A stretch of 64,000 nt of DNA, taken from NCBI GenBank assembly GCA_965262715.1, contig OZ253553.1, positions 2,816,001 to 2,880,000 of the forward strand, given 5' to 3'. The notes beneath the pieces were generated by a model that saw nothing but the letters and a program-made list of their open reading frames with translations, was not told the DNA's origin and ran no database searches. Every line of letters begins with the position of its first letter. The stretch's first letter is position 1. The position numbers were made by a program, and so were the translations under genes. Of this stretch, positions 2,628 through 55,139 are shown one piece after another. The stretch is from Bdellovibrionales bacterium. Its GTDB lineage: Bacteria; Bdellovibrionota; Bdellovibrionia; Bdellovibrionales; JAUICD01.

Positions 2628-2950
2628 CTTTAAAAAAACAAGCTTTCATGTCCGGATTTTAAGCATCAATATCCAACTCCTAAGACAAGTCTTCTCTTAA
2701 ATTCCCTTAAACCCTCTTAGAACTAACTTTTAACCAATATAAAGTTGGCATCGCTTTTGCTGTTATAAATAGGCCTGAAACTTATTGTTAATTATTAATG
2801 AATAAAAAAGTTTTCCTTAACATTGTATAAAAAAATGAAAAGATCCTCCTTACTAAAAATAAACATACTTTTGAGGCAGTCAGCATTTTCTTGAAGGTGC
2901 AAACCTTCAGGCTGACTGCCCAAAAGTGATCAGAGATCAGTTTATTTTTA
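2628..2950 (+). repeat. ~325-bp direct repeat, second copy at about 4031-4354
   Basis: Both begin ctttaaaaRaacaagctttcatgtccgga and run through a sigma54-like promoter, ATGAATAAAAAAG and one structured element; they flank the TA module. Confidence 0.9.
2745..2761 (+). promoter_or_regulatory. sigma54 -24/-12 promoter candidate
   Basis: TTGGCATCGCTTTTGCT, GG-N10-GC spacing; conserved in the duplicate. Confidence 0.6.
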
Positions 2951-2960
2951 GTGAAACAAT
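2811..2960 (+). repeat. structured ~150-bp dispersed element, copy A
   Basis: TTCCTTAACAT 5' end, stems CTAAAAATAAAC/GTTTATTTTTAG, GGCAGTCAGC/GCTGACTGCC, TGAAGGT-GCAA-ACCTTCA, TGATC-AGA-GATCA, 3' end GTGAAACAAT. Confidence 0.9.
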
Positions 2961-3174
2961 GCCTTCTGATTTACAATCCGTTTTTGGCTGGTCAGAGCGA
3001 TTAAAAGAGACTTTTGGTGCTGATAGTTTCAATTTTGGGCTAAATGTGGTAGATTTAAATCAGATATCTGATGAGGATATTAAAGATAAAGCTGGCGATA
3101 TAGCAAGTTTTTGTTTTGCATTCAAACATGTTTGGAATATGACACAAGCTAAGATCAGATCTGTGTTATTTTAA
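2961..3174 (+). pseudogene. Rpn-family (PD-(D/E)XK nuclease / putative transposase) internal fragment
   Basis: Near-identical to 4613-4820; NVVDLNQISDEDI motif; truncated at both ends. Confidence 0.7.
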
Positions 3175-3347
3175 TTAACTCTGTCATGTCAGATAAATTC
3201 TATCAAGTTTTAACAGCCCTTGCTAATTTTCTGCCGATAGTTTCTATGTTCATAAACTATACTCTTTCCAAAAAGCTTATGCTAACTAGCAAGTAGTTAC
3301 ACAACTTAAATTATAGGAACTTATTGGAGTAGTATTAAATTAAAAAA

Positions 3348-3686
3348 TTAGGATGGCCAATGAATTATCTTTCCTTGAGTTGGAGAAATTGGATTGTCTT
3401 GCCAATGCTTAAGAAATTTTTCTACGTATCTTTTTCCTTTATATTGAGGAATTGTAATCAATACAATGGCCATACTAGAAAACTTCGTCATTTCTTTATG
3501 TGCGGATTTAGCAAAGAGGGTGTCTCTTGTAAGAATACAAGTAAAATCTGCATGACTTGCAGTAGATAAGAGTTCACCATTTTGCAATTCATTCCAACCT
3601 TGTTCATATGCCGTTTTGCATTCAATGCCCATTGATTTTAATGAGGAAACTAACTGTTGAGGAAGGTTATGATCAAGCAGCCACAT
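3348..3686 (-). CDS. DUF5615 / PIN-like toxin of a type II TA pair
   Basis: MWLLDHNLP start, ILTRD motif, overlaps the stop of the upstream DUF433 gene. Confidence 0.8.
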   Translation of the reverse strand: MWLLDHNLPQQLVSSLKSMGIECKTAYEQGWNELQNGELLSTASHADFTCILTRDTLFAKSAHKEMTKFSSMAIVLITIPQYKGKRYVEKFLKHWQDNPISPTQGKIIHWPS

Positions 3687-3909
3687 GATTTGCAGCAAAC
3701 TTTAGAAGTTCTGGTACACTTTCTTTAGGAAAGCCAGGGTAATCTTCAGAAATTTCTTCAGATGTCATTCCGATAGAAAGACATTCTAAAACTTGAGAAA
3801 CAGATATTCTAGTTCCTTTGACTGTTGGTTTACCACCAAGTAAGTCAGGATGGCAAACAACCCATTTGTATTCTGGATATGTTTTTATTAATTGTGTATT
3901 TTGGTCCAT
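3673..3909 (-). CDS. DUF433 antitoxin
   Basis: PDLLGGKPTVKGTRISVSQVLE...EEISEDYP signature. Confidence 0.9.
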   Translation of the reverse strand: MDQNTQLIKTYPEYKWVVCHPDLLGGKPTVKGTRISVSQVLECLSIGMTSEEISEDYPGFPKESVPELLKFAANHVAA

Positions 3910-4147
3910 AGTTTATTCCATTTAGCTTTATTCATTACTTATAAGAGTACTAAAAAAAATGTGCTTTGTCAAAACCTAAAAACAATCAGAGACTTGTTTC
4001 GAGAGGGGGGGTTGTTTTTAGCCAAGCAATCTTTAAAAGAACAAGCTTTCATGTCCGGACTTTAAGCTTGACTGTCCAACTCTTAAGATAAAGTTTCTGT
4101 TAAATTTCCTTAAACTCTCTTAGAACCAACTTTTAATCAGTATAAAG

Positions 4148-4164
4148 TTGGCATTGCTTTTGCT
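4148..4164 (+). promoter_or_regulatory. sigma54 -24/-12 promoter candidate (duplicate)
   Basis: TTGGCATTGCTTTTGCT. Confidence 0.6.
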
Positions 4165-4212
4165 ATTATAAATAGGCCTGAAACTTATTGTTAATTATTA
4201 ATGAATAAAAAA

Positions 4213-4363
4213 GATTTCCTTAACATTGTATAAAAAAATGAAAAGATCCTCCTTACTAAAAATAAACATACTTTTGAGGCAGTCAGCATTTTCTTGAAGG
4301 TGCAAACCTTCAGGCTGACTGCCCAAAAGTGATCAGAGATCAGTTTATTTTTAGGGAAACAAC
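4213..4363 (+). repeat. structured element, copy B
   Basis: Nearly identical to copy A; ends TTTTAGGGAAACAAC. Confidence 0.9.
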
Positions 4364-4446
4364 TAAATTAGCCTTTAAAAATAAAGATCGTTTTAGAAAG
4401 CTTTTAAAATTTGTATTAGGTTCTAAAAAGTAGAAAACTTAAAAAA

Positions 4447-4612
4447 GATTTCCTTAACATTGTATAAAAAAATGAAGAGATCCTCTTTACTAAAAATAAA
4501 CGGATTTTCTAGGCAATGACCTATTTGCTGATGGCGTAAGACCATCAGGGTCATTGCCAGAAAACTGCCAGAGGCTCGCCTCGAGAGGCAGGTTTACTTT
4601 TAGTGAAACAAT
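4447..4612 (+). repeat. structured element, copy C (variant with extended side hairpin)
   Basis: GGCAATGACC/GGTCATTGCC, TGATGG/CCATCA, GAGGCTCGCCTCGAGAGG insert. Confidence 0.9.
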
Positions 4613-5156
4613 ATCCTCTGATTTACAATCCGCTTTTGGTTGGTCAGAGCGATTAAAAGAGATTTTTGGTGCTGATAGTTTCAATTTTGGGCTAAATGTG
4701 GTAGATTTAAATCAGATATCCGATGAGGATATTAAAGATAAAGCTGGCGATATAGCAAGTTTTTGTTTTGCATTCAAACATGTTTGGAATATGACACAAG
4801 CTAAGATCAGATCTGTGTTTGAGATGTGTTATCAAGATGGTAAGGATCCAAACTATCATGAGAATGCTGATATTTTAGGTAGATATATGCTTCAAGCTAC
4901 AAATTACCGAAGAGAGGAATTTGTAAAGATTGAAAATGAAGTTATTAAAGGTAAGGAGGATCAAATGATGAAAAGTACTTACGATCAATTGATTGATGAA
5001 GGGATGGAGAAAGGAATAGAAAAAGGGATGGAGAAAGGAATAGAGAAAGAGAAGGCAGAAGTAGCTTTGCGAATGTTAGAGCAAAATATGGAATTGCAAC
5101 TTATAGCCCAAACAACAAATCTTTCAATCCAACAACTTCAAAAACTTAGAAAGTGA
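4613..5156 (+). pseudogene. Rpn-family protein, C-terminal half; nuclease N-terminus disrupted by element copies B and C
   Basis: EGMEKGIEKG repeats and VALRMLEQNMELQLIAQTTNLS tail; remnant KLAFKNKDRFRKLLKFVL between copies B and C resembles an Rpn N-terminus. Confidence 0.8.
4965..5156 (+). CDS. putative small C-terminal Rpn protein (RpnS-type, 63 aa) from an internal start
   Basis: AAGGAGGA Shine-Dalgarno just upstream of ATGATG (MMKSTYDQL). Confidence 0.6.
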   Translation: MMKSTYDQLIDEGMEKGIEKGMEKGIEKEKAEVALRMLEQNMELQLIAQTTNLSIQQLQKLRK

Positions 5157-5170
5157 TTTTTTAAGATACA

Positions 5171-5605
5171 GGCGATATAGCAAGTTTTTGTTTTGCATTC
5201 AAACATGTTTGGAATATGACACAAGCTAAGATCAGATCTGTGTTTGAGATGTGTTATAAAGATGGTAAGGATCCAAACTATCACGAGAATGCTAGTATTT
5301 TAGGAAGATATATGCTTCAAGCTACAAATTACCCAAGAGAGGAATTTGTAAAGATTGAAAATGAAGTTATTAAAAGTAAGGAGGATCAAATGATGAAAAG
5401 TACTTACGATCGATTGATTGATGAAGGGATAGAAAAAGGAATGGAGAAAGGAATAGAAAAAGGAATGGAGAAAGGGATAGAAAAAGGAATAGAAAAAGGG
5501 AAAACAGAAGTAGCTTTGCGAATGTTAGAGCAAAATATGGAATTGCAACTTATAGCCCAAACAACAAACCTTTCAATCCAACAACTTCAAAGACTTAGAA
5601 AGTGA
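5171..5605 (+). pseudogene. tandem duplicate of the Rpn C-terminal region (copy of about 4746-5160)
   Basis: Near-identical DNA with more EKG[IM] repeats; internal SD plus ATG at 5390 retained. Confidence 0.8.
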
Positions 5606-6015
5606 TTTTTATAGAGTTTAGAGTGCAAGTGGTCTCAAGATGGTCGAGCAAGTGAGATAATAGACAAACTTACCCATAACTCCAACTATGTATCTATATT
5701 TATTACACATTTTCTTAACATTCCAGCAGAAAATTCTGGAGTTCTATGGAAACTTTATATCGATCTTAAGCTTTCAACTCGTGATATTGAGAAACTCACT
5801 CAATTTTCATGGTCAAAAGCCTCTATTTTAGAGGCTTTAAAAAAGCACAAAATCAAAAAAAATGTTTATACATCTACTTTTAAAAAAGGAAGAAAAAATG
5901 GAAACACTCATTAAAATCATTATAGCAATATCATTGCTGCTTGGATCAGGTTATTGTGCTAAAGAGATTTTATTCAATGTTGAAAAATTAACCACGGAGA
6001 GGTGAGGTGTACCCT

Positions 6016-6969
6016 TTATTTGGAGGATCCGTTCCATATTTTACTCACTTCTGAGATTCCCATTGTTGTTAATTCTCCTGTTTTCCATTTAGCTTCAAAT
6101 TCATTAGGTGATAAGTAACCTAATGAAGAATGTCGCCTTTTTTTATTATACATACCTTCGATAAACTTTGGAATACTTCTTAATACATCTTCAAAAGTTT
6201 TATACTCACACAGATGAACTTCTTCTCTTTTTAAAGAGCTAAAGAAAGATTCAACAAATGCATTATCCCAACAATTGGCTTTTCTCGACATGCTGATCTT
6301 AAAGCCTTTTTCTTTAAGCTTGTGGGTATAATCCTTACTGGTGTATTGGACACCTTGATCACTATGATGAATACATCCTTTAGCATTTGATCTCTGCTCT
6401 AAACTCATCTCTAAAGCTCCTAAACAAAGCTCTATGTTGATCTCTCTAGAAATAGCCCACCCTACAATCTTCCTTGAAAAAATATCTAAAATCACTGCTA
6501 AAAAAACAAAACCATCTTGAATCCTAATGTATGTGATATCTGTTACCCAAAGCTGGTTGGGTCTATTCACTTCAATGCCAAAAGTTAAATTCGGATAAAC
6601 TCGATTTGAATGTTTAGAATCCGTGGTTGAAACCTTAAAACCTTTGTAAATCAAAGCCTTTAAACCGTATTTCCGCATAATGCGAGCAATCCTCTTGTGG
6701 TTGGCTTTAATACTCTTCTCTTGCTCAAGTTCCAATTGAATACGACGTATTCCATACATCGGGTATTTACACTGTATCCTCTCAATCTGCTCTTTCAAAT
6801 CAAAATCCTTTTGCTCTCGCTCTTGCTGCGAAAACTTCTTCTTGTAATAGTAGCTGCTTAAAGGTAATCCTAACGCTTTACACGTTTTTGAAATTGATCC
6901 AAATTCTTTCCAGTGATTACCGACGATCTCACGCTTTTCCTCTGCTGAAGCTCCTTTTTGGCCTTTTTT
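6016..6969 (-). CDS. IS3 OrfB, DDE integrase core, reached by -1 frameshift
   Basis: WVTDITY, HSDQGVQY, WDNAFVESFF; frame open upstream of 6798 (CKALGLPLSSYYY); AAAAAAG slippery site at 6969-6963. Confidence 0.88.
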   Translation of the reverse strand, partial: KKGQKGASAEEKREIVGNHWKEFGSISKTCKALGLPLSSYYYKKKFSQQEREQKDFDLKEQIERIQCKYPMYGIRRIQLELEQEKSIKANHKRIARIMRKYGLKALIYKGFKVSTTDSKHSNRVYPNLTFGIEVNRPNQLWVTDITYIRIQDGFVFLAVILDIFSRKIVGWAISREINIELCLGALEMSLEQRSNAKGCIHHSDQGVQYTSKDYTHKLKEKGFKISMSRKANCWDNAFVESFFSSLKREEVHLCEYKTFEDVLRSIPKFIEGMYNKKRRHSSLGYLSPNEFEAKWKTGELTTMGISEVSKIWNGSSK

Positions 6970-7220
6970 AAAAACTCGTTCTCTAGGCTCAGCTGTCCTA
7001 CCTTTGCCTGAAGAGCATATGCTTGTCTCTCTAGAGACCTCTCCCTTGATGAAGGGTTTCCCAAAGGTGTCCCTTGTTGATACTTCTTAAACCACTCTAA
7101 GATTGTCTGGCGATGAAGTTGATGCTCCCGGCAAATCTCTAACAAAGATCTGCCTTCATGCATCGATTTACAAATAGCTTCCTTAAATTCAACATTAAAT
7201 CGTCTTCTTACTTTGCCCAT
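6870..7220 (-). CDS. IS3 OrfA (HTH)
   Basis: RRRFNVEFK...ENEFLKKA pattern. Confidence 0.88.
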   Translation of the reverse strand: MGKVRRRFNVEFKEAICKSMHEGRSLLEICREHQLHRQTILEWFKKYQQGTPLGNPSSRERSLERQAYALQAKVGQLSLENEFLKKAKKELQQRKSVRSSVITGKNLDQFQKRVKR

Positions 7221-7314
7221 GATCTTCCTCCTGATCTTATAGCTTTTTATAGCTAAAATTCAGGAATCTCAAGTGAGTTACTTTATCACTTAACTCTCCA
7301 GTTTATGGGGTACA

Positions 7315-7928
7315 GACCACAAACGTTTAAAACTCTTTCTGAAAGTTATCAAAGAAGAATTGAGAAACTCAAATTAGAAAACGAAAAGCTAGCCCATCTC
7401 ATAGCTAAAAATCCTTTAGCTGAGAAATTAGATAGTTTACTTTCTAAGATTAAAGATAATGAAGATCATCTCTCTCAATTAGAAGCTAAAAAGCAAGAAT
7501 TAGAAATAGGTTTACTCAACAAGATTACAAGTAAGAATATAGATTCTAACTTTATCTTGTCTGGTATTAAAAAGTTTCGCCAAGATAGTTTTCGTAAAGC
7601 CAAAGTTTCCAAGAAACGATCTATCATTCAAGAAGTTATCAAAGCTATTCATGTTCATCCAGAAAATGTCATTCAAGTTGATTTTTGGGGAAATGAACAC
7701 CAATCTAGAACCTCTAGAAAAAATTCCTTTCAGCCGGGAGTTGTATTACCTTTTCGTAAAATCGCAGGGCCTCTTGAAGCATCTTTCCATCAAAACAACT
7801 ATAAAAAAGATCGGTTTTCAGATATAAAAAAGGCTGCTGGACTTGGAACTTATGCCTTATGCCATAACGAAAATTTAATGGCCTTAGGTTCGTCCAATAT
7901 CAGAGATGGTCGGCACGACTGGATTTGA
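7315..7928 (+). pseudogene. C-terminal fragment of a large serine recombinase-like integrase, cut by IS3
   Basis: Coiled coil followed by KRSIIQEVIKAIHV; the reading frame ends inside the tRNA 3' end. Confidence 0.55.
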
Positions 7929-8093
7929 ACCAGCAAATCTCTTCCTCAAAATGGTCTCGCAAGCGACTTTCTGATTGTTAGCCAAGTGGGTTTTTATACA
8001 CCCTCTTTAAAAAGCTAACAATCTAGAAAGCATGACCATTTTGAGTATTTTATTATCATACGGATGTACGCTACCAAGCTGCGCCACGTGCCG
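7907..8093 (-). tRNA. tRNA-Pro-like gene interrupted by a 125-nt insert; anticodon absent (pseudo or split tRNA)
   Basis: 5' part CGGCACGTGGCGCAGCTTGGTAGCGTACATCCGT (8093-8060); 3' part GCTGGTTCAAATCCAGTCGTGCCGACCA (7934-7907); acceptor stem CGGCACG/CGTGCCG as in tRNA-Pro(GGG). Confidence 0.85.
7935..8059 (-). repeat. structured element, divergent copy D inside the tRNA
   Basis: CTCAAAATGGTC/GACCATTTTGAG and TTTCT-A-GATTGTTAGC/GCTAACAATC-AGAAA; same architecture as the other copies. Confidence 0.75.
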
Positions 8094-8101
8094 ATAACAT
8101 T

Positions 8102-9580
8102 CTAATCTTTTGATGTGTCTTTTACTCTCTGAGACTTATTATTAACTATTCTATCTATTTTAATAACTTGTTTTGCTCTTGCTATAGCTAAACTATTTGG
8201 AGGAACATCGTCTGTAATAGTAGATCCACTGCCTATAACAGATCCTTTACCTACCTTTATTGGAGCTATAAGTTGTACATCGCTACCTACAAAAACATTA
8301 TCTTCTATAAGAGTTTTATATTTTTTATGATCTTCCCGGTAATTGCAAGTGATTGTTCCGCAACCTATATTAACATTTGATCCTATTTCAACGTCACCTA
8401 AATAACTCAAATGAGAAGCTTTCACATGATCTGCAAAAATAGCTTTTTTTGTTTCTACAAAATTGCCTACTTTACAATGGTTTCCAATATGAGTTTCAGG
8501 TCGCAATCTAGCATAAGGACCAATCAAACTATGAGATTCAACAATAGCATTTTCCAAATAACTTCCTGCTTTGATTTTGACATAACAACCTATCTTAGAA
8601 TCACGAATAATAGAATTAGGCTCAACCTCACAGCCTTCAGCTATTTGGGAACCTCCTAAGATATAAGTGTTTGGATAAATAGTAGCTGTTGGCTTGATAT
8701 CAACATCATCTTCAATATAAGTACTTTCAGGATCAATAATCACCACACCCCTATCCATAAGTTGCATGGCCTTTTTATAAAACACTTTTTTTGTAGTTAC
8801 TGCAAGCTCTTGTTGCGATTCAATTGGATAAGAAATATCTTCGTTCAAAGAGAGATAAGAGGCTTTTTCTGGATTTTTTTGCAAAAACTTAAAAAATATA
8901 CCCGCTAAATAGCTTGTTAAATCATCTGCTTTATATGAATGAGATAGTGAAAATATATTATTAACAATTGTTTTTTTAAAGATATAAATATTCGATCTGA
9001 GCTTTTTAGAAAAACTGCTAAGCTTGTCACTCTTCGCTGCTTCTTCAATCTGATGCTTTAAGCCTGAGTTTTGAGTAGGTGCGGCTATTGTTAAATCCTT
9101 AGCAGACTTCTGAAAGCTTTTTATGATAGATATCAAATCATTGGTTTGTAGAAGAAAACTATCTGCACTCACAAATAAAATGATTTGACTATCACATTTG
9201 GTCGTTAATTCTGACTTTATGCTATCTACTACATTTTTTAAATGACTTTGTTGAGTATAAGAAACAAGGTATGATGATAAAGACTCTTTTATTTGTGAAT
9301 ATGTATCTTTTGTAGTGACAACATTTATATCTAAGTCAGTAGGTAGCTCCTGTTGGTCTGACAATCCTCTTAAAGCTTTGACAACCCTCAGGATCATTGG
9401 AATACCTGCAACAGGATGCATGTATTTTGAAAGAGGAGAATGCATGTTAGTATCCTGATCAAATGCTAATATAAATGCGGTAAGCTTTGTTTTTGAAAAA
9501 GAATTTGATGTTTTCATTGTGATTTTCCATCTATTTTTGGGTTTGTGCTTGTTTGTTGTATGGTAATCTATTATTTTCAT
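8102..9580 (-). CDS. glmU: GlmU-like protein; acetyltransferase domain intact, uridyltransferase motif degenerate
   Basis: IGPYARLRP, VGNFVETK, HLSYLGD, GCGTITCNY; N-terminal ILAFDQDTNM instead of ILAAGxGTRM. Confidence 0.88.
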   Translation of the reverse strand: MKIIDYHTTNKHKPKNRWKITMKTSNSFSKTKLTAFILAFDQDTNMHSPLSKYMHPVAGIPMILRVVKALRGLSDQQELPTDLDINVVTTKDTYSQIKESLSSYLVSYTQQSHLKNVVDSIKSELTTKCDSQIILFVSADSFLLQTNDLISIIKSFQKSAKDLTIAAPTQNSGLKHQIEEAAKSDKLSSFSKKLRSNIYIFKKTIVNNIFSLSHSYKADDLTSYLAGIFFKFLQKNPEKASYLSLNEDISYPIESQQELAVTTKKVFYKKAMQLMDRGVVIIDPESTYIEDDVDIKPTATIYPNTYILGGSQIAEGCEVEPNSIIRDSKIGCYVKIKAGSYLENAIVESHSLIGPYARLRPETHIGNHCKVGNFVETKKAIFADHVKASHLSYLGDVEIGSNVNIGCGTITCNYREDHKKYKTLIEDNVFVGSDVQLIAPIKVGKGSVIGSGSTITDDVPPNSLAIARAKQVIKIDRIVNNKSQRVKDTSKD

Positions 9581-9671
9581 AAAGGAAATGTATTTTTGAA
9601 AACTCTTTTAAATAAGACAAACTTTAGAATAAACAGTCAATTTTTATAGATTTTTACTATGGGGGTTCTAC

Positions 9672-11513: not shown

Positions 11514-11630
11514 AGTCCAAATCTTAAAGCGTCTAATCTTCTGTAAATTGACAAGAAAAGCAAAACGCTTTTACTCTGATTTAAGCCTCATAATTTTCTT
11601 AAATATATTTTAGGCTAGGAGATAAGCTAG

Positions 11631-22322: not shown

Positions 22323-22325
22323 ATC

Positions 22326-26739: not shown

Positions 26740-27520
26740 TGTTAAGGATAAGATTTCCTTAACATGAGGTAAAAAAATGAAGAGGGTCTCCCTCCTAAAA
26801 ATAGTCAGGCATTCTAGGCAATCAGCATTTTACTGATGGTGTTAACCATCATGCTGATTGCCAGAAAGTTGCCAGAGGCAAGACTATTTTTAGTGAGACA
26901 GCAGTTATCGAGGATTATAAAAGCTGGCGAAAGATTATGATGTTAAGGATAAGATTTCCTTAACATGAGGTAAAAAAATGAAGAGGGTCTCCCTCCTAAA
27001 AATAGTCAGGCATTCTAGGCAATCAGCATTTTACTGATGGTGTTAACCATCATGCTGATTGCCAGAAAGTTGCCAGAGGCAAGACTATTTTTAGTGAGAC
27101 AGCAGTTATCGAGGATTATAAAAGCTGGCGAAAGATTATAGGTGTTAAGGGTAAGATTTCCTTAACATGATGTTAAAAGATGAGGAGAGTCTTCTTACTA
27201 AAAATGAATGGATTTTTGAGTCAATGAGCATTTTACGAGGGTGTTAGTCGTCGTGCTCATTGACTCAAAAATGGTGAGAGGCTCGCCTCGAGAGGCCAGT
27301 TTATTTTTAGTGAGACAGCAGTTATCGAGGATTATAAAAGCTGGCGAAAGATTATAGGTGTTAAGGGTAAGATTTCCTTAACATGATGTAAAAAGATGAA
27401 GGGAGTCTCCCACCTAAAAATAGTCAGGCTTTCTAGGCAATCAGCATTTTACTGATGGTGTTAACCATCATGCTGATTGCCAGAAAGTTGCCAGAGGCAA
27501 GACTATTTTTAGGGAGACAG
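26702..27520 (+). repeat. four-unit tandem array: rpsQ 3' end plus structured element (copies E1-E4)
   Basis: Units start 26702, 26903, 27104, 27320; elements at about 26752-26902, 26953-27103, 27155-27319, 27371-27520. Confidence 0.95.
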
Positions 27521-27534
27521 AAAGGTAATTTAAG

Positions 27535-42018: not shown

Positions 42019-42098
42019 CTCTATTCATTATTTAAGTAGTTTTATGACGTTAAGGATAAACGTTGTTATTTCTTTTAAAATGTCTTTTTTTGTCTAAG

Positions 42099-42252: not shown

Positions 42253-42282
42253 TCTATGAAGGTTTTCCTTACTAATACACTA

Positions 42283-45141: not shown

Positions 45142-45460
45142 TATAATACTCCTTAAAAAATGGTTAATATTGCTACATAAATATTAATTAGAAACTACAT
45201 TATGTATACTTATAGAGATGATTTTATTAGCTATCGGCTGATTTCAGTAAAAGATGAATAAAAAATATTGAAATTTGAAGAATGGAAGAATTAAATTTGA
45301 ATTTTTTAAAAATTATATATCTATATAACACAAGAAAGTAAAACCCCAATAAATAAATCAATATGTGGATTATCTATATATACTAAGTTGATGATAAAAT
45401 CAAGTACATCGTTGAAATAAAATTCTTTTTTTTGATAACTCCTTATTATAAGGTGAGAAC

Positions 45461-47521
45461 TTAGCCAGATGTAGCAAGAGCAAGTCGTCCATCTTTCTTT
45501 GAAAGCTCTGACTTTAGTGTTCTATGTTGAGATAGATGAGGATCTTTTTGAAAAAGCTCATGAGCCGCTCTATGCGCTTGCAGGAGAATGTCTTTATCTC
45601 TTATAACATTTGCCATTTTAAAACCATCAATCCCAGATTGACGTGTTCCTAAAACATCACCAGGCCCTCTAAGTTCTAGATCTTTATCAGCTATTTGAAA
45701 TCCATCATTTGTTTGTTCTAAAATACGAATGCGCTGCATGCTCTCTCTGGATACTCTTTGTCCTAACATCAAGATACAGTAACTCTTATAAAGTCCTCTG
45801 CCTACTCTTCCTCTTAATTGATGAAGTTGAGACAATCCGAAACACTCTGCATGTTCTATTAAGATCAAGTTGACATTAGAAACATCCATACCTACCTCTA
45901 TCACTGTTGTAGAAACTAGAGCTTGAATCTCAGCTTTTTTAAAAGCATTCATAATAGCCTCTTTTTCTGGAGGCTTTAACTTTCCATGTATAAGTCCTAA
46001 GGAAAACTCTTGAAACTCTTTTTTCAAATTTTCAAACTCTGAGACAGCATCTTTTAAGAAATCTCTTTTTTCACTTTCTTCAACTAGAGGATAAACAATA
46101 TACACTTGACGACCTTGATTTAACTGTTGCCTGATGAACTCCATAACTTTTCTTCTTTGATGTTCCTTTACCATTCTAGTTACAATAGGCGTCCTCCCAG
46201 AAGGCATTTGATCTATAATAGACACATCTAAATCTCCATAGAGTGTTAGTGAAAGTGATCTGGGAATAGGCGTGGCTGTCATAACCAACAGATGTGAGCC
46301 TTTAACTTTTAATTGTCTTCTCTGATGGACACCAAATCGATGTTGTTCATCGATAATAGATAAAGCTAAGTTTTTAAACTTTACATCTTCTTGTATCAAA
46401 GCATGGGTACCAATACACAATTGAACTTCTGACTTTTGTATTTGTAATAATTTCTCTGTTCTTTCTGATTTTTTGATTTGTCCTGTCAGCAATGTAATAG
46501 GAATGCCAAGTTGAGAAAATAATTTTTTTGCATTTTGGTAATGTTGTTCTGCTAAAACCTCTGTTGGTACCATAAAAGCAACTTGGTATCCATTAATAAT
46601 GGCATGAAGCGCAGCTAGGAAAGCCACTACTGTTTTGCCGCATCCTACATCTCCTTGGATTAACCGGTGCATAGGTCTTGCAAGTTTTAAATCTTGTTGA
46701 ATATCTTCAAGAACACGCACTTGAGCTGAAGTCAAAGACAAGCTTAATATATTAAGCGCTTTTTCTTGGAAGCTTTGGCTATCTTTATCCATAGCAAAAG
46801 ATCTTGTTTGTGGACTTAAGGATTTTCTAGCAAGAGCTGTCAGTTGCATCCAAAAGAATTCTTCAAATTTAATTCTTCTTTGAGCTTGAGATTTTCCTGA
46901 ATGGAGAGCATCGATCATATCACTTTTAGGTTGATGGAGATGTTGCAAAGCTGTTTCTTTTGGAATGAGTTGGTATTCTTGTCTTAACCATTCTGGGAGG
47001 AAATCTTGGACTTTTCCCTGTATAGCTTTTAAGGCTGTTTTTATAATACGTAATAACTTCTTATGACTAATAGGATCCATATCTGGGTAAAGAGGGACAA
47101 TTTGATCAAAGTTTTCTTCTTCTGTATAGTCGAGGATATCAGGATGACGAAATTCCTTTTTATCTTGATAAAGGCTTACCCGTCCCTCAACACGCACTTT
47201 CATATCTGGCTTAAATCTATCAAAGTATCCTCTGTAAGGTTGTTTAAAGTATTTGCAGCTAATATATCCAAAGTCGTCTCTTAAAATCACATCCCATATT
47301 CTAGAACGTCTATAGAAATTAACAGACACTACATAAGCCACAAGGCTTACATCTTCCCCTTCCCTTACATCTCTAATGGACTGATAGGCTCTATAATCTC
47401 GATAGCCTCTAGGATAGGTTTGCAAAAGATCTTCTACAGTTTTAATACCTTTTCTTTCTAATACCTTAGCTAGCTGAGGCCCAACACCTTTTAAATACTG
47501 TACAGAAGTTGAAAGTTCCAT
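45461..47521 (-). CDS. recG: ATP-dependent DNA helicase RecG
   Basis: QGDVGCGKT, DEQHRFG, TATPIPR, QLRGRVGRG. Confidence 0.97.
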   Translation of the reverse strand: MELSTSVQYLKGVGPQLAKVLERKGIKTVEDLLQTYPRGYRDYRAYQSIRDVREGEDVSLVAYVVSVNFYRRSRIWDVILRDDFGYISCKYFKQPYRGYFDRFKPDMKVRVEGRVSLYQDKKEFRHPDILDYTEEENFDQIVPLYPDMDPISHKKLLRIIKTALKAIQGKVQDFLPEWLRQEYQLIPKETALQHLHQPKSDMIDALHSGKSQAQRRIKFEEFFWMQLTALARKSLSPQTRSFAMDKDSQSFQEKALNILSLSLTSAQVRVLEDIQQDLKLARPMHRLIQGDVGCGKTVVAFLAALHAIINGYQVAFMVPTEVLAEQHYQNAKKLFSQLGIPITLLTGQIKKSERTEKLLQIQKSEVQLCIGTHALIQEDVKFKNLALSIIDEQHRFGVHQRRQLKVKGSHLLVMTATPIPRSLSLTLYGDLDVSIIDQMPSGRTPIVTRMVKEHQRRKVMEFIRQQLNQGRQVYIVYPLVEESEKRDFLKDAVSEFENLKKEFQEFSLGLIHGKLKPPEKEAIMNAFKKAEIQALVSTTVIEVGMDVSNVNLILIEHAECFGLSQLHQLRGRVGRGLYKSYCILMLGQRVSRESMQRIRILEQTNDGFQIADKDLELRGPGDVLGTRQSGIDGFKMANVIRDKDILLQAHRAAHELFQKDPHLSQHRTLKSELSKKDGRLALATSG

Positions 47522-47714
47522 GTTGTTTCACTAAAAATGAACCAGCCTCTCAAGGCGAGCCTCTCAAGGCGAACCTCTCGAGGCGAGCCTCTGGCTGTTT
47601 TGGGACAGTCAGCTTGACGGTTTACACCGTCAATAAAATGCTGACTGTCTCAAAAATCCGTTCATTTTTAGTAAGGAGACTCCTTTCATTTTTTTACACA
47701 ATGTTAAGGAAATC
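47522..47714 (-). repeat. structured element, copy F, abutting the recG start codon
   Basis: TGACGGT-GTAA-ACCGTCA; side hairpin expanded by a triplicated 14-bp unit. Confidence 0.9.
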
Positions 47715-47779
47715 GTTTTATTTCCCTACCTTATTCTTATTTCCTCTCTTAACAAATTACCTAAATCTTTACTGTTTCC

Positions 47780-47860
47780 CTAGAAAGCTTGAGGCTCGCC
47801 TCGAGAGGCATTTTTAGGAGGGAGATTCTTTTCATTTTTTAACATAATGTTAAGGAAATC
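47780..47860 (-). repeat. partial hybrid element, copy G
   Basis: Minus-strand 5' leader joined at TTTTTAG to a plus-oriented side hairpin GAGGCTCGCCTCGAGAGGC. Confidence 0.7.
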
Positions 47861-48127
47861 GTTCACTGCCTCACCTTCTATACTCTCTCTTATTAACAAA
47901 TCATCTCAAATCGTAACTCTAAAGATTTTTTCCCCGTCTTTTCTAAAAAAACAACATATCTTCCTAGCTTTCTTTTTTTTATTTTTTTGATGATAAGTGT
48001 TTTATTAACCTTCTACTTCAAGACTTAAGTAAAGTAAATACATTTGCCCATTCGTGTCTGAAACAAAAGAGATTTATTATGATAATATAACCTAAGTAAT
48101 AGTATTTTAATAAGACAGGCAAAAAGA

Positions 48128-50479
48128 ATGGTCATGAAACTTCCCCAATTTATTATTTTTACACTAGCTATCATATTGCTTAATCTTTTTAATGCAAGCC
48201 ATTTTGATGGTGACGGTTTAAAGTCAGGGCTCTATCAAGAGGTATTTGCACAGATCCCAAGCAAAGGTCCTATTATTCCACCACCCCCTTCTCCTAATAA
48301 GGCTTTTACCTCTAATGAATCACCTTCTTCTACAACGAGTGAAACAATGAATAAACAAGATTTTGCTAACGCTTATCCTGAAGATATCACCAATGAGAAC
48401 TTTCCTGACCTTGTAGAAAGCTTTGATTTTAAAAATGCGCATATAAAGGTCGTCACTGAGGCTATTTCAAAACTAACGGGAAGAAACTTTATCATAGATT
48501 CAGCAGTTAATGGAACAATCACCATTATTGCGCCTTCTAGTATCACAGTTGCAGAAGCTTATAAGGCTTTCTTATCAGCACTTGCCATCAATAACCTAAC
48601 AGTAGTTCCTGCAGGCAAATTTTTGAAAGTCACAACTCTTATTAAGGCAAAAGGAAGTAGTGAGGTTTTTTCAGGCACTTATACACCTGATACAGACCAA
48701 ATGATCACTCGTATCATTCAACTAAAGCATTCAAATGTCGCGCAAGTTAGTCAGTTCATCAATAAAGCTGTTTCACCACAGGGTAATCTTCAAAGTTATG
48801 AGCCCACCAACACACTTGTGATCACAGATTTTGGTTCTAAAATTAACAACTTCATGAAAATCATTAGACAAATTGACGAATCTAGTGTAAATGAACAAAT
48901 GGCTGTTATGCCCATTCGATTTGCAAAAGCCAAAGACATTGCTGAGTTATTAGAAAAAATCATTAATAAAGGGCAACCACCACCTAGAGGTGGTCGACCT
49001 AATATTCCTCGATTTAGACAAAAAAAAGGTCGTACAGCTCAGAAAAAAGGTTCTGCCTTTTCACTTGTGCTGCCTGATGAAAGAACAAACTCTATTATTG
49101 TTTTAGCAAATCAACAAGGTATTGCAGAGGTGCGTAGGTTAATTAAACAACTTGATTTTGACATCAATCCAGAAGATGCAGGAGGACTTTATGTCTACTA
49201 TGTCAAACATGCTAAAGCAGAAGATATTGCAAATACAATCAATGGCATTGCTCAGCAATCTAAAAAAGATGCAAAGAGTCGACCTATAATCCCAAGTAAG
49301 ACAAATAGACCTTCTAGTACCCCATCAGGTTCGGTTGGATTCTTAGGAGAAGAAGTCAAAATCACATTTGATGAGCAGACGAATAGCTTGATCATTGCAG
49401 CAAGTCGTCAGGATTATGAGATTGTTTTAAATCTTTTATCTAAAATTGACATCCCTAGAGACCAGGTTTTTGTAGAAGCCATTATTCTTGAAATGAGAGT
49501 CACAGATGAACTTTCTTATGGGTTTAATCTTTTTCAGTTTGCACAAGGCTCAAAAGGACTAGGTAGAATAGGTTTTGGAAGCCCAGATCTTATGACAAAG
49601 ATTACAAATATTGGCACGCCAGGCTTGGTCTTAGGATTTGGAAGAGGAGAAGATGTGAGTATTAGAAATCCACTTGGTACTCCAGCAGAAATAAATGTTA
49701 AATCTATAATGGGATTCATAAATCTTCTTAAAACTGTAACTAAGGTAAATATTCTATCCACACCTCAAATTTTAGCTCTTGATAATGCAGAAGCAGAAAT
49801 TGAAGTAGGGGAAAGAGTTTCCATTGGGCAAAGCAATCAACTAAGTTCTCCAGGCAATCCAATATTACAGAATCCTACCTATGAAGATGCCACTATTAAG
49901 CTTGCCATCACTCCACAAATTAGCTCAGATAAGGAGACTGTGCGTTTAAATATTGATCAACAAATAAAAGAGGTTGTTACTGTTGTTGGTGCTCCTCCAA
50001 ATTTTACTACACGATCTTTAAAGTCTGATGTGGTTGTTCAAAATGGAGATACAATTGTGCTTGGAGGATTAATGAAAGATATAGAAAGGCCAATAATAAA
50101 TAAAGTTCCTATCTTAGGAGATATTCCTATACTGGGTTGGTTATTTAAAAGCAAATCACGTACGATTGATAAGCTGAACCTACTGATTTTTCTCACACCT
50201 CGCATTATACAAAACCGCACAGATGCGAGGGCTCTTTCTGATTTAAAGGTTAAAGAGAGATTGCAGTTTATTAAAGATACAGGAGGCGAAGATTTTCACG
50301 GTCGTAAGATAGAGGAGATCCGCATAGCTAATGCAAGAAACAATGTGGCTACAGAAGACTTGTCAGAAGAAGGCATAGAAGATTTACAAGAAGAAGAATT
50401 ACTAGAAGAAACAGAAAATTATGATGATGATGATAGTCTAGAAGAGGATATAGAAGATTTAGAGAACATAGAGTTATAA
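48128..50479 (+). CDS. gspD: type II secretion secretin GspD
   Basis: N0-N3 repeats, QVFVEAIILE, STPQILALDN, KVPILGDIPILGWLF. Confidence 0.95.
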   Translation: MVMKLPQFIIFTLAIILLNLFNASHFDGDGLKSGLYQEVFAQIPSKGPIIPPPPSPNKAFTSNESPSSTTSETMNKQDFANAYPEDITNENFPDLVESFDFKNAHIKVVTEAISKLTGRNFIIDSAVNGTITIIAPSSITVAEAYKAFLSALAINNLTVVPAGKFLKVTTLIKAKGSSEVFSGTYTPDTDQMITRIIQLKHSNVAQVSQFINKAVSPQGNLQSYEPTNTLVITDFGSKINNFMKIIRQIDESSVNEQMAVMPIRFAKAKDIAELLEKIINKGQPPPRGGRPNIPRFRQKKGRTAQKKGSAFSLVLPDERTNSIIVLANQQGIAEVRRLIKQLDFDINPEDAGGLYVYYVKHAKAEDIANTINGIAQQSKKDAKSRPIIPSKTNRPSSTPSGSVGFLGEEVKITFDEQTNSLIIAASRQDYEIVLNLLSKIDIPRDQVFVEAIILEMRVTDELSYGFNLFQFAQGSKGLGRIGFGSPDLMTKITNIGTPGLVLGFGRGEDVSIRNPLGTPAEINVKSIMGFINLLKTVTKVNILSTPQILALDNAEAEIEVGERVSIGQSNQLSSPGNPILQNPTYEDATIKLAITPQISSDKETVRLNIDQQIKEVVTVVGAPPNFTTRSLKSDVVVQNGDTIVLGGLMKDIERPIINKVPILGDIPILGWLFKSKSRTIDKLNLLIFLTPRIIQNRTDARALSDLKVKERLQFIKDTGGEDFHGRKIEEIRIANARNNVATEDLSEEGIEDLQEEELLEETENYDDDDSLEEDIEDLENIEL

Positions 50480-50497
50480 AGATTAAGGGTTTTAAAA

Positions 50498-52204
50498 ATG
50501 CCAAATGAAAATATGGAAAGCCTAATCTTTAGATATACAAAAATATCTCGCCCAGAAATTAAAGGGATTTTAGCTCATAACACCAAAAACGGTAAGAGTT
50601 TAGGCGAAATCCTTAGTGAAAGAAAAGAGGGAAAAAAAGATAAAGAAGAATCCATTGATGTTATTTTAGCAACGCTCTCTTATCATCTTAAGCTTGATTA
50701 TATAAAAGATATTCCTATCAATGATATACCTATAGATCTCATTAGAAACCTACCCTTAAAATATGCCACAGACAATGCTATTTTGCCGTACAAATCAGAT
50801 AATCGAGGCATCACCGTCTTGCTATCTAATCCTTTTAATTTAGATATCCTCAATGATCTTAAAGCTTTTTTTGGAAAGAAGATTATTCCAATATTATCTA
50901 CTTCTACTAAGATCCAAGATGCGATCAATAAAGTCTATGAAAAGGGTGCAGCTACTTTTGAGGGGCTTGATGAAATAGAAGAAGAAGAATATGACCTAGA
51001 GGAACCTATCATCGATCTTTTGGAATCTGGAGATGATGATGCTCCGGTGATCAGATTGGTTAATAACTTACTTTTCCGCGCTGTCAAAGAAAAGGCTTCA
51101 GATATTCATATTGAACCCTATGAAAGAGATATGGTTGTACGCTTTCGAATAGACGGTATTCTTTATGATATTTTTAAACCCCCTAAAAAGTTTCAAAATG
51201 CCATTACATCTCGTATCAAAGTGATGGGGCATCTGAATATTGCTGAAAAGAGACTCCCACAAGATGGTCGTATTCCTTTAAAGTTTGCTGGAAAAGACAT
51301 TGATGTGAGGCTGAACACTGTACCCACTGCGCACGGAGAACGCCTGGTGATGCGTTTGCAAGACCGTTCCAATGTGATACTTGAACTAGAACAACTAGGG
51401 TTTCCTAAAGACACTCTTGAAACACTTTCTGAACAGCTTTCTAAAACACACGGTATTGTTTTAGTGACAGGACCTACAGGAAGTGGAAAATCAACAACTC
51501 TCTATGCGGGGCTTATGAAAATCAACTCTGTTGAACGAAATATTATTACTGTAGAAGACCCTGTTGAAAATCGTATTCATGGTATAGGTCAGATCCAAGT
51601 GAACTCTAAGATTGGGTTAACTTTTGCTAATGGGTTAAGAGCTATTTTACGTCAAGATCCGGATGTGATCATGATCGGAGAAATTCGAGATTTTGAAACA
51701 GCTGAGATTGCGATCAATGCATCTCTAACAGGGCACTTAGTGTTATCAACACTACATACAAATGATGCAGCGGGTGCTGTTCCAAGGCTTATGGATATGG
51801 GTTGTGAGCCATTTTTGATCTCTAGCTCCTTACTTTGTATTATTGCGCAAAGGTTGGTCCGAATGCTTTGTCCTCACTGTAAGGTAAAGTACAAGCTTTC
51901 GCAAGAAGATATTGCTACTTTAGGTATCACACCTGATATTGTAGCTAGAAGTAATCCTTTTAAGGCTATAGGTTGCAATCAATGCAATCAAAAAGGGTAT
52001 GTAGGAAGAACTGTGATTTCAGAATGCTTAGTTGTCACAGATGAAATTCGTAAGTTGATCTTAAGAAGACAAGATGGTGGCACAGTCAAGAAGGCAGCTG
52101 TTAGAAATAAAATGAGAACCGTACACTTAGACGGCATTCGAAAAATCCTCACAGGAGTTACTACAATAGAAGAGCTTCTTTCTAATTCTCAAGCTGATGA
52201 CTAA
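50498..52204 (+). CDS. gspE: type II secretion ATPase GspE
   Basis: ASDIHIEP, GPTGSGKST, LRQDPD, LTGHLVLSTLH, Cys tetrad. Confidence 0.95.
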   Translation: MPNENMESLIFRYTKISRPEIKGILAHNTKNGKSLGEILSERKEGKKDKEESIDVILATLSYHLKLDYIKDIPINDIPIDLIRNLPLKYATDNAILPYKSDNRGITVLLSNPFNLDILNDLKAFFGKKIIPILSTSTKIQDAINKVYEKGAATFEGLDEIEEEEYDLEEPIIDLLESGDDDAPVIRLVNNLLFRAVKEKASDIHIEPYERDMVVRFRIDGILYDIFKPPKKFQNAITSRIKVMGHLNIAEKRLPQDGRIPLKFAGKDIDVRLNTVPTAHGERLVMRLQDRSNVILELEQLGFPKDTLETLSEQLSKTHGIVLVTGPTGSGKSTTLYAGLMKINSVERNIITVEDPVENRIHGIGQIQVNSKIGLTFANGLRAILRQDPDVIMIGEIRDFETAEIAINASLTGHLVLSTLHTNDAAGAVPRLMDMGCEPFLISSSLLCIIAQRLVRMLCPHCKVKYKLSQEDIATLGITPDIVARSNPFKAIGCNQCNQKGYVGRTVISECLVVTDEIRKLILRRQDGGTVKKAAVRNKMRTVHLDGIRKILTGVTTIEELLSNSQADD

Positions 52205-54136
52205 GTTAGGAAATACTTATGAGGTTGTATTTTACTTATAGCGGTGTTTATGCAGAATTTCCTTAACATTGTGTTAAAAGATAAAAGGAGTCTGTTTACT
52301 CAAAATGAACGGATTTTTGAGGCAGTCAGCATTTTCTTGAAGATGTAAATCTTCAGGCTGACTGTCCAAAAATGACCAGAGGTCAGTTTATTTTGAGTGA
52401 GACAACGAGCTTCTTTCTAATTCTCAAGCTGATGACTAAGTTAGGAAATACTTATGAGGTTGTATTTTACTTATAGCGGTGTTTATGCAGAATTTCCTTA
52501 ACATTGTGTTAAAAGATAAAAGGAGTCTGTTTACTCAAAATGAACGGATTTTTGAGGCAGTCAGCATTTTCTTGAAGATGTAAATCTTCAGGCTGACTGT
52601 CCAAAAATGACCAGAGGTCAGTTTATTTTGAGTGAGACAACGAGCTTCTTTCTAATTCTCAAGCTGATGACTAAGTTAGGAAATACTTATGAGGTTGTAT
52701 TTTACTTATAGCGGTGTTTATGCAGAATTTCCTTAACATTGTGTTAAAAGATAAAAGGAGTCTGTTTACTCAAAATGAACGGATTTTTGAGGCAGTCAGC
52801 ATTTTCTTGAAGATGTAAATCTTCAGGCTGACTGTCCAAAAATGACCAGAGGTCAGTTTATTTTGAGTGAGACAACGAGCTTCTTTCTAATTCTCAAGCT
52901 GATGACTAAGTTAGGAAATACTTATGAGGTTGTATTTTACTTATAGCGGTGTTTATGCAGAATTTCCTTAACATTGTGTTAAAAGATAAAAGGAGTCTGT
53001 TTACTCAAAATGAACGGATTTTTGAGGCAGTCAGCATTTTCTTGAAGATGTAAATCTTCAGGCTGACTGTCCAAAAATGACCAGAGGTCAGTTTATTTTG
53101 AGTGAGACAACGAGCTTCTTTCTAATTCTCAAGCTGATGACTAAGTTAGGAAATACTTATGAGGTTGTATTTTACTTATAGCGGTGTTTATGCAGAATTT
53201 CCTTAACATTGTGTTAAAAGATAAAAGGAGTCTGTTTACTCAAAATGAACGGATTTTTGAGGCAGTCAGCATTTTCTTGAAGATGTAAATCTTCAGGCTG
53301 ACTGTCCAAAAATGACCAGAGGTCAGTTTATTTTGAGTGAGACAACGAGCTTCTTTCTAATTCTCAAGCTGATGACTAAGTTAGGAAATACTTATGAGGT
53401 TGTATTTTACTTATAGCGGTGTTTATGCAGAATTTCCTTAACATTGTGTTAAAAGATAAAAGGAGTCTGTTTACTCAAAATGAACGGATTTTTGAGGCAG
53501 TCAGCATTTTCTTGAAGATGTAAATCTTCAGGCTGACTGTCCAAAAATGACCAGAGGTCAGTTTATTTTGAGTGAGACAACGAGCTTCTTTCTAATTCTC
53601 AAGCTGATGACTAAGTTAGGAAATACTTATGAGGTTGTATTTTACTTATAGCGGTGTTTATGCAGAATTTCCTTAACATTGTGTTAAAAGATAAAAGGAG
53701 TCTGTTTACTCAAAATGAACGGATTTTTGAGGCAGTCAGCATTTTCTTGAAGATGTAAATCTTCAGGCTGACTGTCCAAAAATGACCAGAGGTCAGTTTA
53801 TTTTGAGTGAGACAACGAGCTTCTTTCTAATTCTCAAGCTGATGACTAAGTTAGGAAATACTTATGAGGTTGTATTTTACTTATAGCGGTGTTTATGCAG
53901 AATTTCCTTAACATTGTGTTAAAAGATAAAAGGAGTCTGTTTACTCAAAATGAACGGATTTTTGAGGCAGTCAGCATTTTCTTGAAGATGTAAATCTTCA
54001 GGCTGACTGTCCAAAAATGACCAGAGGTCAGTTTATTTTGAGTGAGACAACGAGCTTCTTTCTAATTCTCAAGCTGATGACTAAGTTAGGAAATACTTAT
54101 GAGGTTGTATTTTACTTATAGCGGTGTTTATGCAGA
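52172..54136 (+). repeat. tandem array of 8 apparently identical 235-bp units (85 bp gspE 3' end and flank + 150-bp element) plus a ninth host segment
   Basis: Starts 52172, 52407, 52642, 52877, 53112, 53347, 53582, 53817, 54052. Confidence 0.97.
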
Positions 54137-54320
54137 ATTTCCTTAACATTGTGTTAAAAGATGAAAGGAGTCTGTTTACTCAAAATAAACCAACCTCTGG
54201 TTGCTTTCTGGCAATGACCCTGACGGCTAATGCCCTCAGCAAATAGGCCATTACCTAGAAAGTCCGTTTATTTTGAGTAGGCAGATATTCCTCATTTCTT
54301 TACATCATGTTAAGGGAATC
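54137..54320. repeat. head-to-head fusion of a plus-strand element leader with a full minus-strand element (copy I)
   Basis: TTCCTTAACAT-type termini face inward from both ends; junction in the outer stem. Confidence 0.8.
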
Positions 54321-54518
54321 GATTAAACTTATTTCTAAACTAATCTCATAGAACCTTCTACGTTCTCTATTACTAGATTTAGCAGAGCCTTCAGCCAGGT
54401 TTAATACAATGCTAAGTATAGCTCTTTGGAACTGATTTTTTATTGGTCCTCTTAAGCTTAAATTGTTAGATTTACGATAGAGTTGGGTTGCTAAGTAATA
54501 AGTTTTGAATTTTTTCAT
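54300..54518 (-). CDS. four-helix-bundle protein (23S rRNA IVP / TIGR02436-like), C-terminus apparently truncated by the element
   Basis: FKTYYLA, NQFQRAILSIVLNLAEGSAK, RRRFYEISL. Confidence 0.8.
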   Translation of the reverse strand: MKKFKTYYLATQLYRKSNNLSLRGPIKNQFQRAILSIVLNLAEGSAKSSNRERRRFYEISLEISLIDSLNMM

Positions 54519-54535
54519 AAAAAGAAATAGAAACA

Positions 54536-54605
54536 TTTTCCCTAACATGTATGTAAAAAGTGAAAGGAGTCTGTTTACTCAAAATGAACGGATTTTTGAG
54601 GCAGT
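54536..54605 (+). repeat. 5' half of a structured element (copy J), divergent from the four-helix-bundle gene
   Basis: TTCCCTAACATG...CTCAAAATGAACGGATTTTTGAGGCAGT, then breaks off. Confidence 0.85.
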
Positions 54606-54658
54606 GACGGATGAATTGTTTTTTTAGAAAAAACAGGGAAAAATCTTTGAAAGCCTTG

Positions 54659-54754
54659 ATTTAATATTTTAAGCCAAGCCTCGAAGTCCTCGAGCCGTCG
54701 CTTAGACAGCGATGGCTCTGCGGAAGATCTCGTCTTTGGCTTAAAATATTAAAT
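54659..54754. repeat. second palindromic mini-element
   Basis: 19-bp perfect IR ATTTAATATTTTAAGCCAA; inner GAGCCGTCGCT/AGCGATGGCTC. Confidence 0.75.
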
Positions 54755-55139
54755 TTTAACTTGCTATAAAGATTTGAGATGATTTGTTAATAAGAGAGAG
54801 TATAGGAGGTGAGCCAGTGAATGATTTCCTTAATTTGTGTTAAGGAAAATGTTTTCGTTTCTTTTTATTATGCAAAAACTCAGAACAGATCCAGTTTGCC
54901 AGCTTTACCTATATCTTTTTAGGATGCACCCACAAATAAGGGACAAAAATTGTAAGCGCATTACAAAAACTGTAAGCAAGAATATTGCTTAAAACGTTAT
55001 TTTTTTAGCTTATGAATCCTTAAAGTTAATTTTAATCTACTTTCACCAAAATTTGTGACATGAATGAAATTGGCACGAATTTTGGAGTAATAAACAATAA
55101 AGTGATCTAATTATGAAAAACTAAGATAAGGATTTAATA

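Follow-up and report, generated by a model that had tools for sequence, protein, structure and literature searches.

The window analysed here, a stretch of 64,000 nucleotides (G000:C1:2816001-2880000) from the genome of an uncultured Bdellovibrionales bacterium (G000; a single contig of 2.94 Mb with 33.6% G+C), contains many copies of a folded, non-coding repeat of 146 bases, termed module A. This repeat is the 3′ module of a two-part unit of about 400 bases, in which a second hairpin (module B) is followed by a purine-rich linker and then by A, and the same unit is present in a sister species (G001, a genome that is 90% complete). The helices of A covary, the right joins of its copies are sharper than the left ones, copies are nested in one another, and they cluster at genes of Avd-like four-helix-bundle proteins. 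A folded repeat in hundreds of copies, with sharp and ragged joins and with such clustering, points to spread as a folded single strand. We tentatively propose that the unit is copied in, 3′ end first, from such a strand, RNA being likelier than DNA, by an enzyme that acts in trans and that may belong to the machinery of the four-helix cassettes.

A folded unit of two modules

The fold of A, described by a covariance model built from 34 copies, is a three-way junction closed by P1 (13 pairs); inside it stand the long P2-P3 arm, which carries a bulged A, and the short P4, whose loop reads AGA. Among the 34 aligned copies, taken from three genomes, 97.5% of the pairing cells pair, compared with 79.8% in shuffles and 36-49% with slid partners, and two-sided changes occur in 31 of the 41 pairs, which none of 500 shuffles matches. 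After the 14-nt loop inserts were stripped, 183 unique copies (140-153 nt) were dereplicated to 164 below 97% identity (mean identity 70%); on the tree of these 164 copies both partners of a pair changed on the same branch 223 times, the mean for shuffled partners being 31 and the maximum 63. The covarying helices reported in an earlier note, made from the letters of the window, are thus upheld, as are the bulged A (present in 98% of copies) and the AGA loop (in 154 of 164) that it described. As many as 27 unpaired positions are conserved at 93% or more while the stems turn over, and the first 40 bases of A are a conserved sequence. No covarying helix was found in these 40 bases, in the 5′ hairpins or between the two ends of A. 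The ends, which the earlier note did not regard as terminal inverted repeats, do resemble each other weakly in inverted orientation, and more so in one G001 subfamily.

Selection on a single-stranded fold of A is well supported by these data, which bears out one half of the earlier statement that a single-stranded structure, probably RNA, is selected; as to the other half, the counts favour RNA weakly. Of 6531 pair cells in the 164 copies, 6023 are Watson-Crick, 173 G-U, 105 A-C and 230 other, an excess of G-U over A-C of 1.65 (p 5e-5); the pair breaks on terminal branches comprise 92 G-U and 53 A-C. The G-U pairs and GNRA loops, which had been put forward as signs of RNA, are thus present, but G-U is rare, and the P3 loop is GNRA in 96 of 164 copies and GNYA in another 22. 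The plus strand is the more stable one in 107 of 164 copies with RNA parameters and in 125 with DNA parameters, so that one strand is preferred but RNA is not singled out.

The size of about 150 bp given earlier for the whole element proved too small, since complete copies carry B and the linker upstream. B is about 190 nt long and has two-sided changes in 14 of 28 predicted pairs (16 copies). In G000 the left end of A lies no more than 70 nt past 37 of 48 B 3′ ends, across a linker of variable length and sequence. The G001 homologue of B retains the same internal-loop core between wholly different, G+C-rich outer stems; an A match comes after B in 24 of 39 cases in the G001 loci, and an inverted B core also occurs in that genome. 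A-only copies would then be units cut short within the linker. A B-core hairpin was also seen in the 3′ non-coding end of an IS30-family element at no fewer than 27 G000 loci (e.g., C1:438407), on the strand opposite the transposase.

A profile search of the whole of G000 gave 546 matches to A, 291 of them near full length, which cover 2.1% of the DNA. Twenty evenly spaced 20-kb tiles of G001 contained 181 matches (103 near full length; 5.6% of the DNA), or about 660 full copies by extrapolation. The scan of genome and relatives suggested in the earlier note thus revealed hundreds of copies in both genomes, but the range is narrow: the A model was found in 3 of 151 genomes of the order, the B model in the same three, and the A model in 1 of 151 genomes of the phylum sample. 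In a further genome, G004, the A matches are confined to three small contigs. These contigs (C1, C4 and C11) are 85-92% identical (about 90%) to G000 and largely syntenic with it, unlike the viewed rest of the bin, and are probably mis-binned DNA from a closer relative of G000. Viral contigs gave 21 single pattern matches to A, none supported by the covariance model, and no match to the B core; the metagenomes gave 0 and 1 pattern matches to A, the one being without model support. Rfam, searched at gathering and E-value thresholds with the window, 20 B-A loci and three G001 B loci, returned weak hairpin matches only, consistent with the earlier remark that the repeat could not be assigned to a known family.

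Junctions, nesting and neighbouring genes

Where orthologous DNA on the three G004 contigs (about 90% identity) can be compared with G000, sites are occupied in one lineage only; the site between rpsQ and rplN is occupied in both, with different content. Paralogous empty sites show the polarity of the joins: in 24 of them, not all independent and kept from 111 candidates after removal of multi-copy clusters, weak alignments and cases in which the 'empty' site itself overlapped an element, the median unmatched stretch is 12.5 nt on the left (5′) and 2.5 nt on the right (3′; p 0.0008). The target at these sites was lost (up to 47 nt), retained or duplicated. Direct repeats of 24-97 nt flank the element in 31 of 232 distinct flank pairs (21 in arrays, 10 terminal; control 6 of about 400), and in the G001 loci, where the flank is not itself element, repeats of 25-86 nt were found in 13 of 353 cases. 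The flank repeats of G000 peak at 82-86 nt, but this peak was discarded, as it was absent when the count was repeated in G001. Base bias extends about 25 nt to the left of A-only copies, fading gradually, and is gone within 3 nt on the right; AG is frequent at the right junction in G000, and the bases past the end are mostly A-rich in G001.

An extra 3′ piece trails 54 of 217 full copies, the random rate being 1.2%. In G000 the outer 5′ piece matches the trailing 3′ piece in 8 of 13 cases (shuffle mean 2.0) and the inner copy matches it in 1 of 13, so that the trailing pieces are often the remains of an older copy that was inserted into; an upstream piece is lacking in 22 trailing-piece cases in each set (G000 and G001). 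Helix variants are mixed among copies. Nearly all copies are intergenic, with 22 of 2153 open reading frames (ORFs) overlapping a match, and genes that were entered are truncated. Nested A composites were also observed inside a CRISPR array of about 60 repeats (G000:C1:2607206-2608242 and 2693649-2694065), presumably of type V-A, judging by its repeat. Taken as a whole, A behaves as a mobile repeat and not as an RNA gene.

Could the fold instead be kept for the host, as a cis-acting RNA structure that serves mRNA stability or termination at operon boundaries? Many copies abut ribosome-binding sites, and the rpsQ-rplN site is filled in two lineages of about 90% identity. Orthologous sites nevertheless differ between lineages, both orientations are found, and four-helix genes and CRISPR repeats are disrupted by copies, as is a tRNA gene following a deletion; we regard such a function as very improbable.

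The neighbours that stand out, a link that the earlier note did not draw, are genes for a 97-aa four-helix-bundle protein. Its match to the TIGR02436 / S23 / Avd profile scores 59 bits against a cut-off of 24, and the predicted structure (pLDDT 86.5) is a four-helix bundle, with the solved S23-family structures 2RLD and 2GSC as top fold matches (TM 0.74-0.85, E above 0.001). The gene is present in 38 matches (34 loci) in G000, 26 in G001, 24 in G004 and 33 in G021, and has no match in 25 of 41 genomes. In G000 a copy of A lies at most 300 nt from 20 of the 34 four-helix loci, from 306 of 2153 ORFs and from 11 of 115 insertion sequence (IS) loci. In G001, A lies within 155 nt of all 20 four-helix loci examined (of 26 matches; baseline 64 of 245 ORFs), three of these 20 having been picked with A known nearby; the clustering counts are not independent. 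Different A variants join the same region, codons 64-71, of four-helix genes in both genomes. Rpn nucleases, present in G000, G001 and G004, were rejected as partner, because A lies near 4 of 21 loci, which is no enrichment.

Four-helix genes elsewhere have hairpins of other kinds. In G004 (L079-L083; contigs C6, C12, C13 and C15) the genes carry another hairpin insert, about 63 nt long, which in four of five viewed loci lies at codon 47-53 and keeps the reading frame, and in other Bdellovibrionales families (L050, L051, L053, L054, L095 and L096) the genes form head-to-head pairs around a long, near-perfect hairpin. Model matches of 27-30 bits on both strands between such head-to-head genes were set aside, since they look like generic hairpins.

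Copies in the window

An unfiltered covariance-model run over the window gave 17 matches of at least 119 bits (at 2805, 4208 and 4442; four at 26747-27525; 47518-47696, minus strand; eight at 52251-54055; and 54166-54325, minus strand) and four partial matches of 34-76 bits, in agreement with the some 18 full copies and partials counted before. The features of the window are as follows.

2812..2958, plus strand: full copy of module A (173 bits)
4215..4361, plus strand: full copy of module A, near-identical to the 2812 copy, with the upstream flank in common
4449..4610, plus strand: module A with a single 14-nt snap-back insert in the P4 loop; a Rpn gene fragment lies downstream
7945..8045, minus strand: diverged, core-only A (P1-P4; 76 bits) between the 5′ part (8063-8093) and the duplicated 3′ part (7908-7935) of tRNA-Pro(GGG)
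26754..27519, plus strand: four copies of A (26754, 26955, 27157 and 27373) between rpsQ and rplN
47524..47712, minus strand: module A with three 14-nt inserts, its 3′ end abutting the recG start codon
47773..47956, minus strand: B relic with an internal deletion, then a purine-rich linker and a copy of A that is also internally deleted
52171..54137, plus strand: tandem array of a 235-nt unit, the gspE 3′ end plus flank (about 87 nt) and module A
54138..54185, plus strand: 5′ piece of A, fused tail to tail through the P1 arm with a minus-strand copy
54174..54318, minus strand: module A inserted in sense within a four-helix-bundle gene (150 bits)
54336..54518, minus strand: the first 61 codons of a four-helix-bundle gene (TIGR02436, Avd-like), truncated by the A insertion (93% identity to an intact paralogue over 61 aa)
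54537..54604, plus strand: 5′ piece of A, which a copy of B interrupts
54607..54795, plus strand: module B, a long co-varying hairpin with a conserved internal-loop core (197 bits, B model)
54796..54846, plus strand: purine-rich linker and relic left end of A

The copy that the earlier note had placed inside a tRNA (8059-7935) is a diverged core only. At the orthologous site G004 has an intact tRNA-Pro(GGG), followed by two cassettes, each of which closes with a core-only A plus 28 nt duplicated from the 3′ end of the tRNA. The arrangement in the window is explained by a deletion that runs from the tRNA to the last of the cassettes and fuses the tRNA 5′ part to it; the copy is not an intron. 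ARAGORN, run genome-wide on G000, lists tRNA-Pro(UGG) as the only tRNA-Pro, and tRNA-Pro(GGG) (window 7908-8093, minus strand) appears to have been destroyed by the deletion. A different arrangement, without a copy of A, was seen at G000:C1:2198524-2198955, where the intact tRNA-Trp gene stands behind four tandem copies, 89 nt each, of an altered form.

In front of each A copy between rpsQ and rplN, 52-58 nt from the 3′ end of rpsQ are duplicated, and there are three variants among the four. In the gspE array the unit is repeated eight times without change (A at 52258 to 53903), and a ninth flank follows; the eight copies noted earlier at 52258-54049 are therefore present, but as one identical array they are not independent and were counted once. 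Two further observations concern the surroundings: an 825-aa protein that combines a RecB-like nuclease domain with a helicase of superfamily 1 is encoded at 110-2587 (plus strand), and a small relic of another four-helix gene lies just beyond rplN (28024-27962, minus strand).

Proposed mechanism of spread and comparison with known repeats

An autonomous copy carrying a transposase or reverse transcriptase (RT), for which the earlier note advised to look, did not come to light: 22 ORFs have A on both sides, as in a REPtron, four of them four-helix genes, and there is no enzyme common to G001 among them. Of the RTs in G000, the retron RT, which lies beside a copy of A at tRNA-Asp, was rejected as mobiliser, and so were those of group II, as they are not common to G001. 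The retron locus (L012; G000:C1:2650522-2652294, minus strand) joins a retron St85 effector and its RT in one 590-aa frame behind tRNA-Asp, and of the two group II introns (L011 and L013) one is intact and one internally deleted. A home-made RT profile added no match, either in G000 or across G001 loci that partly overlap and total 927 kb. Derivation of A from a group II intron was likewise rejected, there being no Rfam domain V/VI match and the left junction being variable. Among IS110/IS1111 domains, PF02371 had no match in G000 and PF01548 none in five genomes, with positive controls. No TnpB lies beside an A copy; the sole matches, frames of 1343 and 1365 aa, were read as Cas12-type by size alone.

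The statement that the repeat is not a classic MITE (a transposable element of the miniature inverted-repeat kind) holds. There is no target duplication of fixed length in the 232 flank pairs, the best excess over shuffles being 7 points (2-mers) and less than 3 points for 4-mers and longer. The best match of IS ends to the ends of A, among seven multi-copy IS families of G000 (two further families had too few copies), is 10 of 14 and off-terminus. A MITE with degenerate inverted ends, whose DDE transposase is now lost or unrecognised, would agree with the inverted resemblance of the two ends, stronger in a G001 subfamily, but on the left the element has no sharp boundary, and complete units reach 250 nt further; this reading is largely refuted and retains little credibility.

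A single-stranded DNA moved by an HUH enzyme (Y1/Y2), comparable to REP/REPIN/BIME repeats, with rolling-circle amplification capturing the upstream flank, is a more serious alternative, albeit a doubtful one. It would account for the nested mosaics and the arrays of flank plus element, the stems are almost purely Watson-Crick, and DNA parameters, too, give the plus strand the advantage. The AG at the right junction of G000 reads CT on the opposite strand, which we take to be the cut site of RAYT enzymes. On the other hand, the Y1 profile (PF01797) found one 164-aa IS200-type gene in G000 and none in G001 or G004, and the search for a Y2 transposase, the type of IS91 rolling-circle elements, was empty in all five genomes, though its control was silent too. 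Moreover, a leading/lagging (replichore) bias is absent (99 and 91 clusters), the consensus has no conserved GTAG tag, and the G001 bases past the right end are mostly A-rich, not AG.

Since no mobilising gene was found, spread without any dedicated enzyme must also be considered, with hairpins that stall replication or are nicked, breaks that are patched by template switching to other copies, and correction of one arm from its partner that imitates selection. The near-complete two-sided compensation agrees with this, and so do the 14-nt snap-back repeats in the P4 loop, the tail-to-tail fusions and the inverted B core in G001. Arm correction does not, however, account for the strongly conserved unpaired positions, the B core kept across species under new outer stems, or the polarity of the junctions, and MutS occurs in each of the five genomes of the family, with SbcD also in G000; we consider this course of events unlikely.

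Copying from a folded single strand, which we prefer, could proceed in five steps. Read-through transcription of a copy would be followed by recognition of the fold, so that only copies with intact helices multiply. A nicked target strand would then prime on the 3′ end of the element, often with an overlap of 1-3 nt, and copying would mostly halt in the unpaired linker before the long stem of B, leaving many A-only copies with variable leaders. Finally, loose joining of the second junction would result in target deletion or duplication. Target-primed reverse transcription is described as yielding variable duplication, deletion or blunt insertion together with 5′ truncation (PMC2881922), the anatomy seen in the joins here, and Avd as binding a non-coding RNA segment and as being required by its reverse transcriptase (PMC6182149). 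In a narrower form, the unit would be a bacterial SINE-like retroelement (after short interspersed nuclear elements), a two-module RNA that parasitises the copying system of Avd-like cassettes and is copied by target priming, with a polymerase outside RVT_1; this version we regard as rather improbable.

Several observations weigh against copying of this kind. RVT_1 has no match in G001 (90% complete), G003 or G004 and is absent from four of five other genomes with multiple four-helix genes, and the three RTs of G000 (two of group II introns, one of retron St85) are not tied to A. G-U makes up only 2.6% of pair cells, there is no adenine-biased change in A copies (per 1000 unpaired cells, A changed 103 times, G 192, T 94 and C 126), and no feature was found in the unit that would fix an RNA 3′ end. 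Avd by itself has no synthesis activity (PMC6182149). In G001 the nesting does not reach significance (5 of 16 against 2.8), 85 matches within A lack the 3′ end (51 of them followed by another piece) compared with 37 that lack the 5′ end, and there is no more than a weak tendency to share the direction of the upstream gene (112 of 190). As for the four-helix link, tRNA genes of G000 are also enriched for nearby A (13 of 35), and the 24 four-helix matches of G004, mostly on large contigs, are without A there; such clustering could arise because the targets are tolerant and rich in hairpins, or because copies hitch-hike when cassettes are duplicated.

In the literature covered, which excluded most subscription papers and all supplements, no description of the A/B family was found, nor any text naming TIGR02436. 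The unit works most like YPAL and bcr1. A 2007 review describes YPAL/RU-2 of Yersinia as a repeat of about 168 bp with internal inverted repeats, no terminal TA and no known enzyme, with target duplications of variable size (3-26 bp for YPAL) and targets at or beside dyad symmetry (PMC2229807). The A/B unit differs from YPAL in its three-way junction and second upstream module, in duplications of up to 97 nt or deletions, and in its polar junctions, nesting and clustering at four-helix-bundle genes. The bcr1 repeat of the Bacillus cereus group, of about 155 bp, is patchily distributed and keeps a branched fold by compensatory changes, but it is shown to be transcribed and is flanked in each case by 5-bp direct repeats (PMC3184786), whereas A has no fixed repeat. 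Rickettsia palindromic elements (RPEs) are structured dispersed repeats of 105-146 bp, found also in RNA genes; they have terminal inverted stems and insert in frame in genes (PMC2229807), unlike A, which is nearly all intergenic and truncates the genes that it enters.

The unit lacks what defines a MITE or a REP/RAYT system. REP, REPIN and BIME repeats are hairpins that form mosaic clusters and are read as single strands (PMC3733652); A is much longer and multi-helix, has no GTAG or CGTC tag among its conserved positions, and no RAYT gene was found in the carrier genomes. SINEs and non-LTR retrotransposons resemble it in the precise 3′ junction, the variable or truncated 5′ end and the variable duplication or deletion (PMC2881922), but for the A unit, in a bacterial host, neither a partner reverse transcriptase nor a poly(A) or repeat tail was found. 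In diversity-generating retroelements (DGRs) an Avd-family gene likewise adjoins structured non-coding sequence, the Sp RNA (PMC6182149); here there is no DGR RT and no adenine-biased change, and a pair of template and variable repeats was neither sought nor seen.

How structured repeats without a transposase, such as YPAL, bcr1 and RPE, are spread is an old open question, and the 2007 review calls the idea of a transposase unsupported (PMC2229807). The A/B family gives an unusually good hold on it: its diverged copies number in the hundreds, covariation establishes their fold, there are empty sites and polar junctions to compare, and one protein is a candidate partner. Should the link to the four-helix proteins fail, the family would stand as a dense, lineage-restricted selfish repeat that occupies 2.1% and about 5.6% of two genomes. 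If the link holds, the spread of the repeat and the multicopy spread of the four-helix genes would both become testable with one protein and one RNA.

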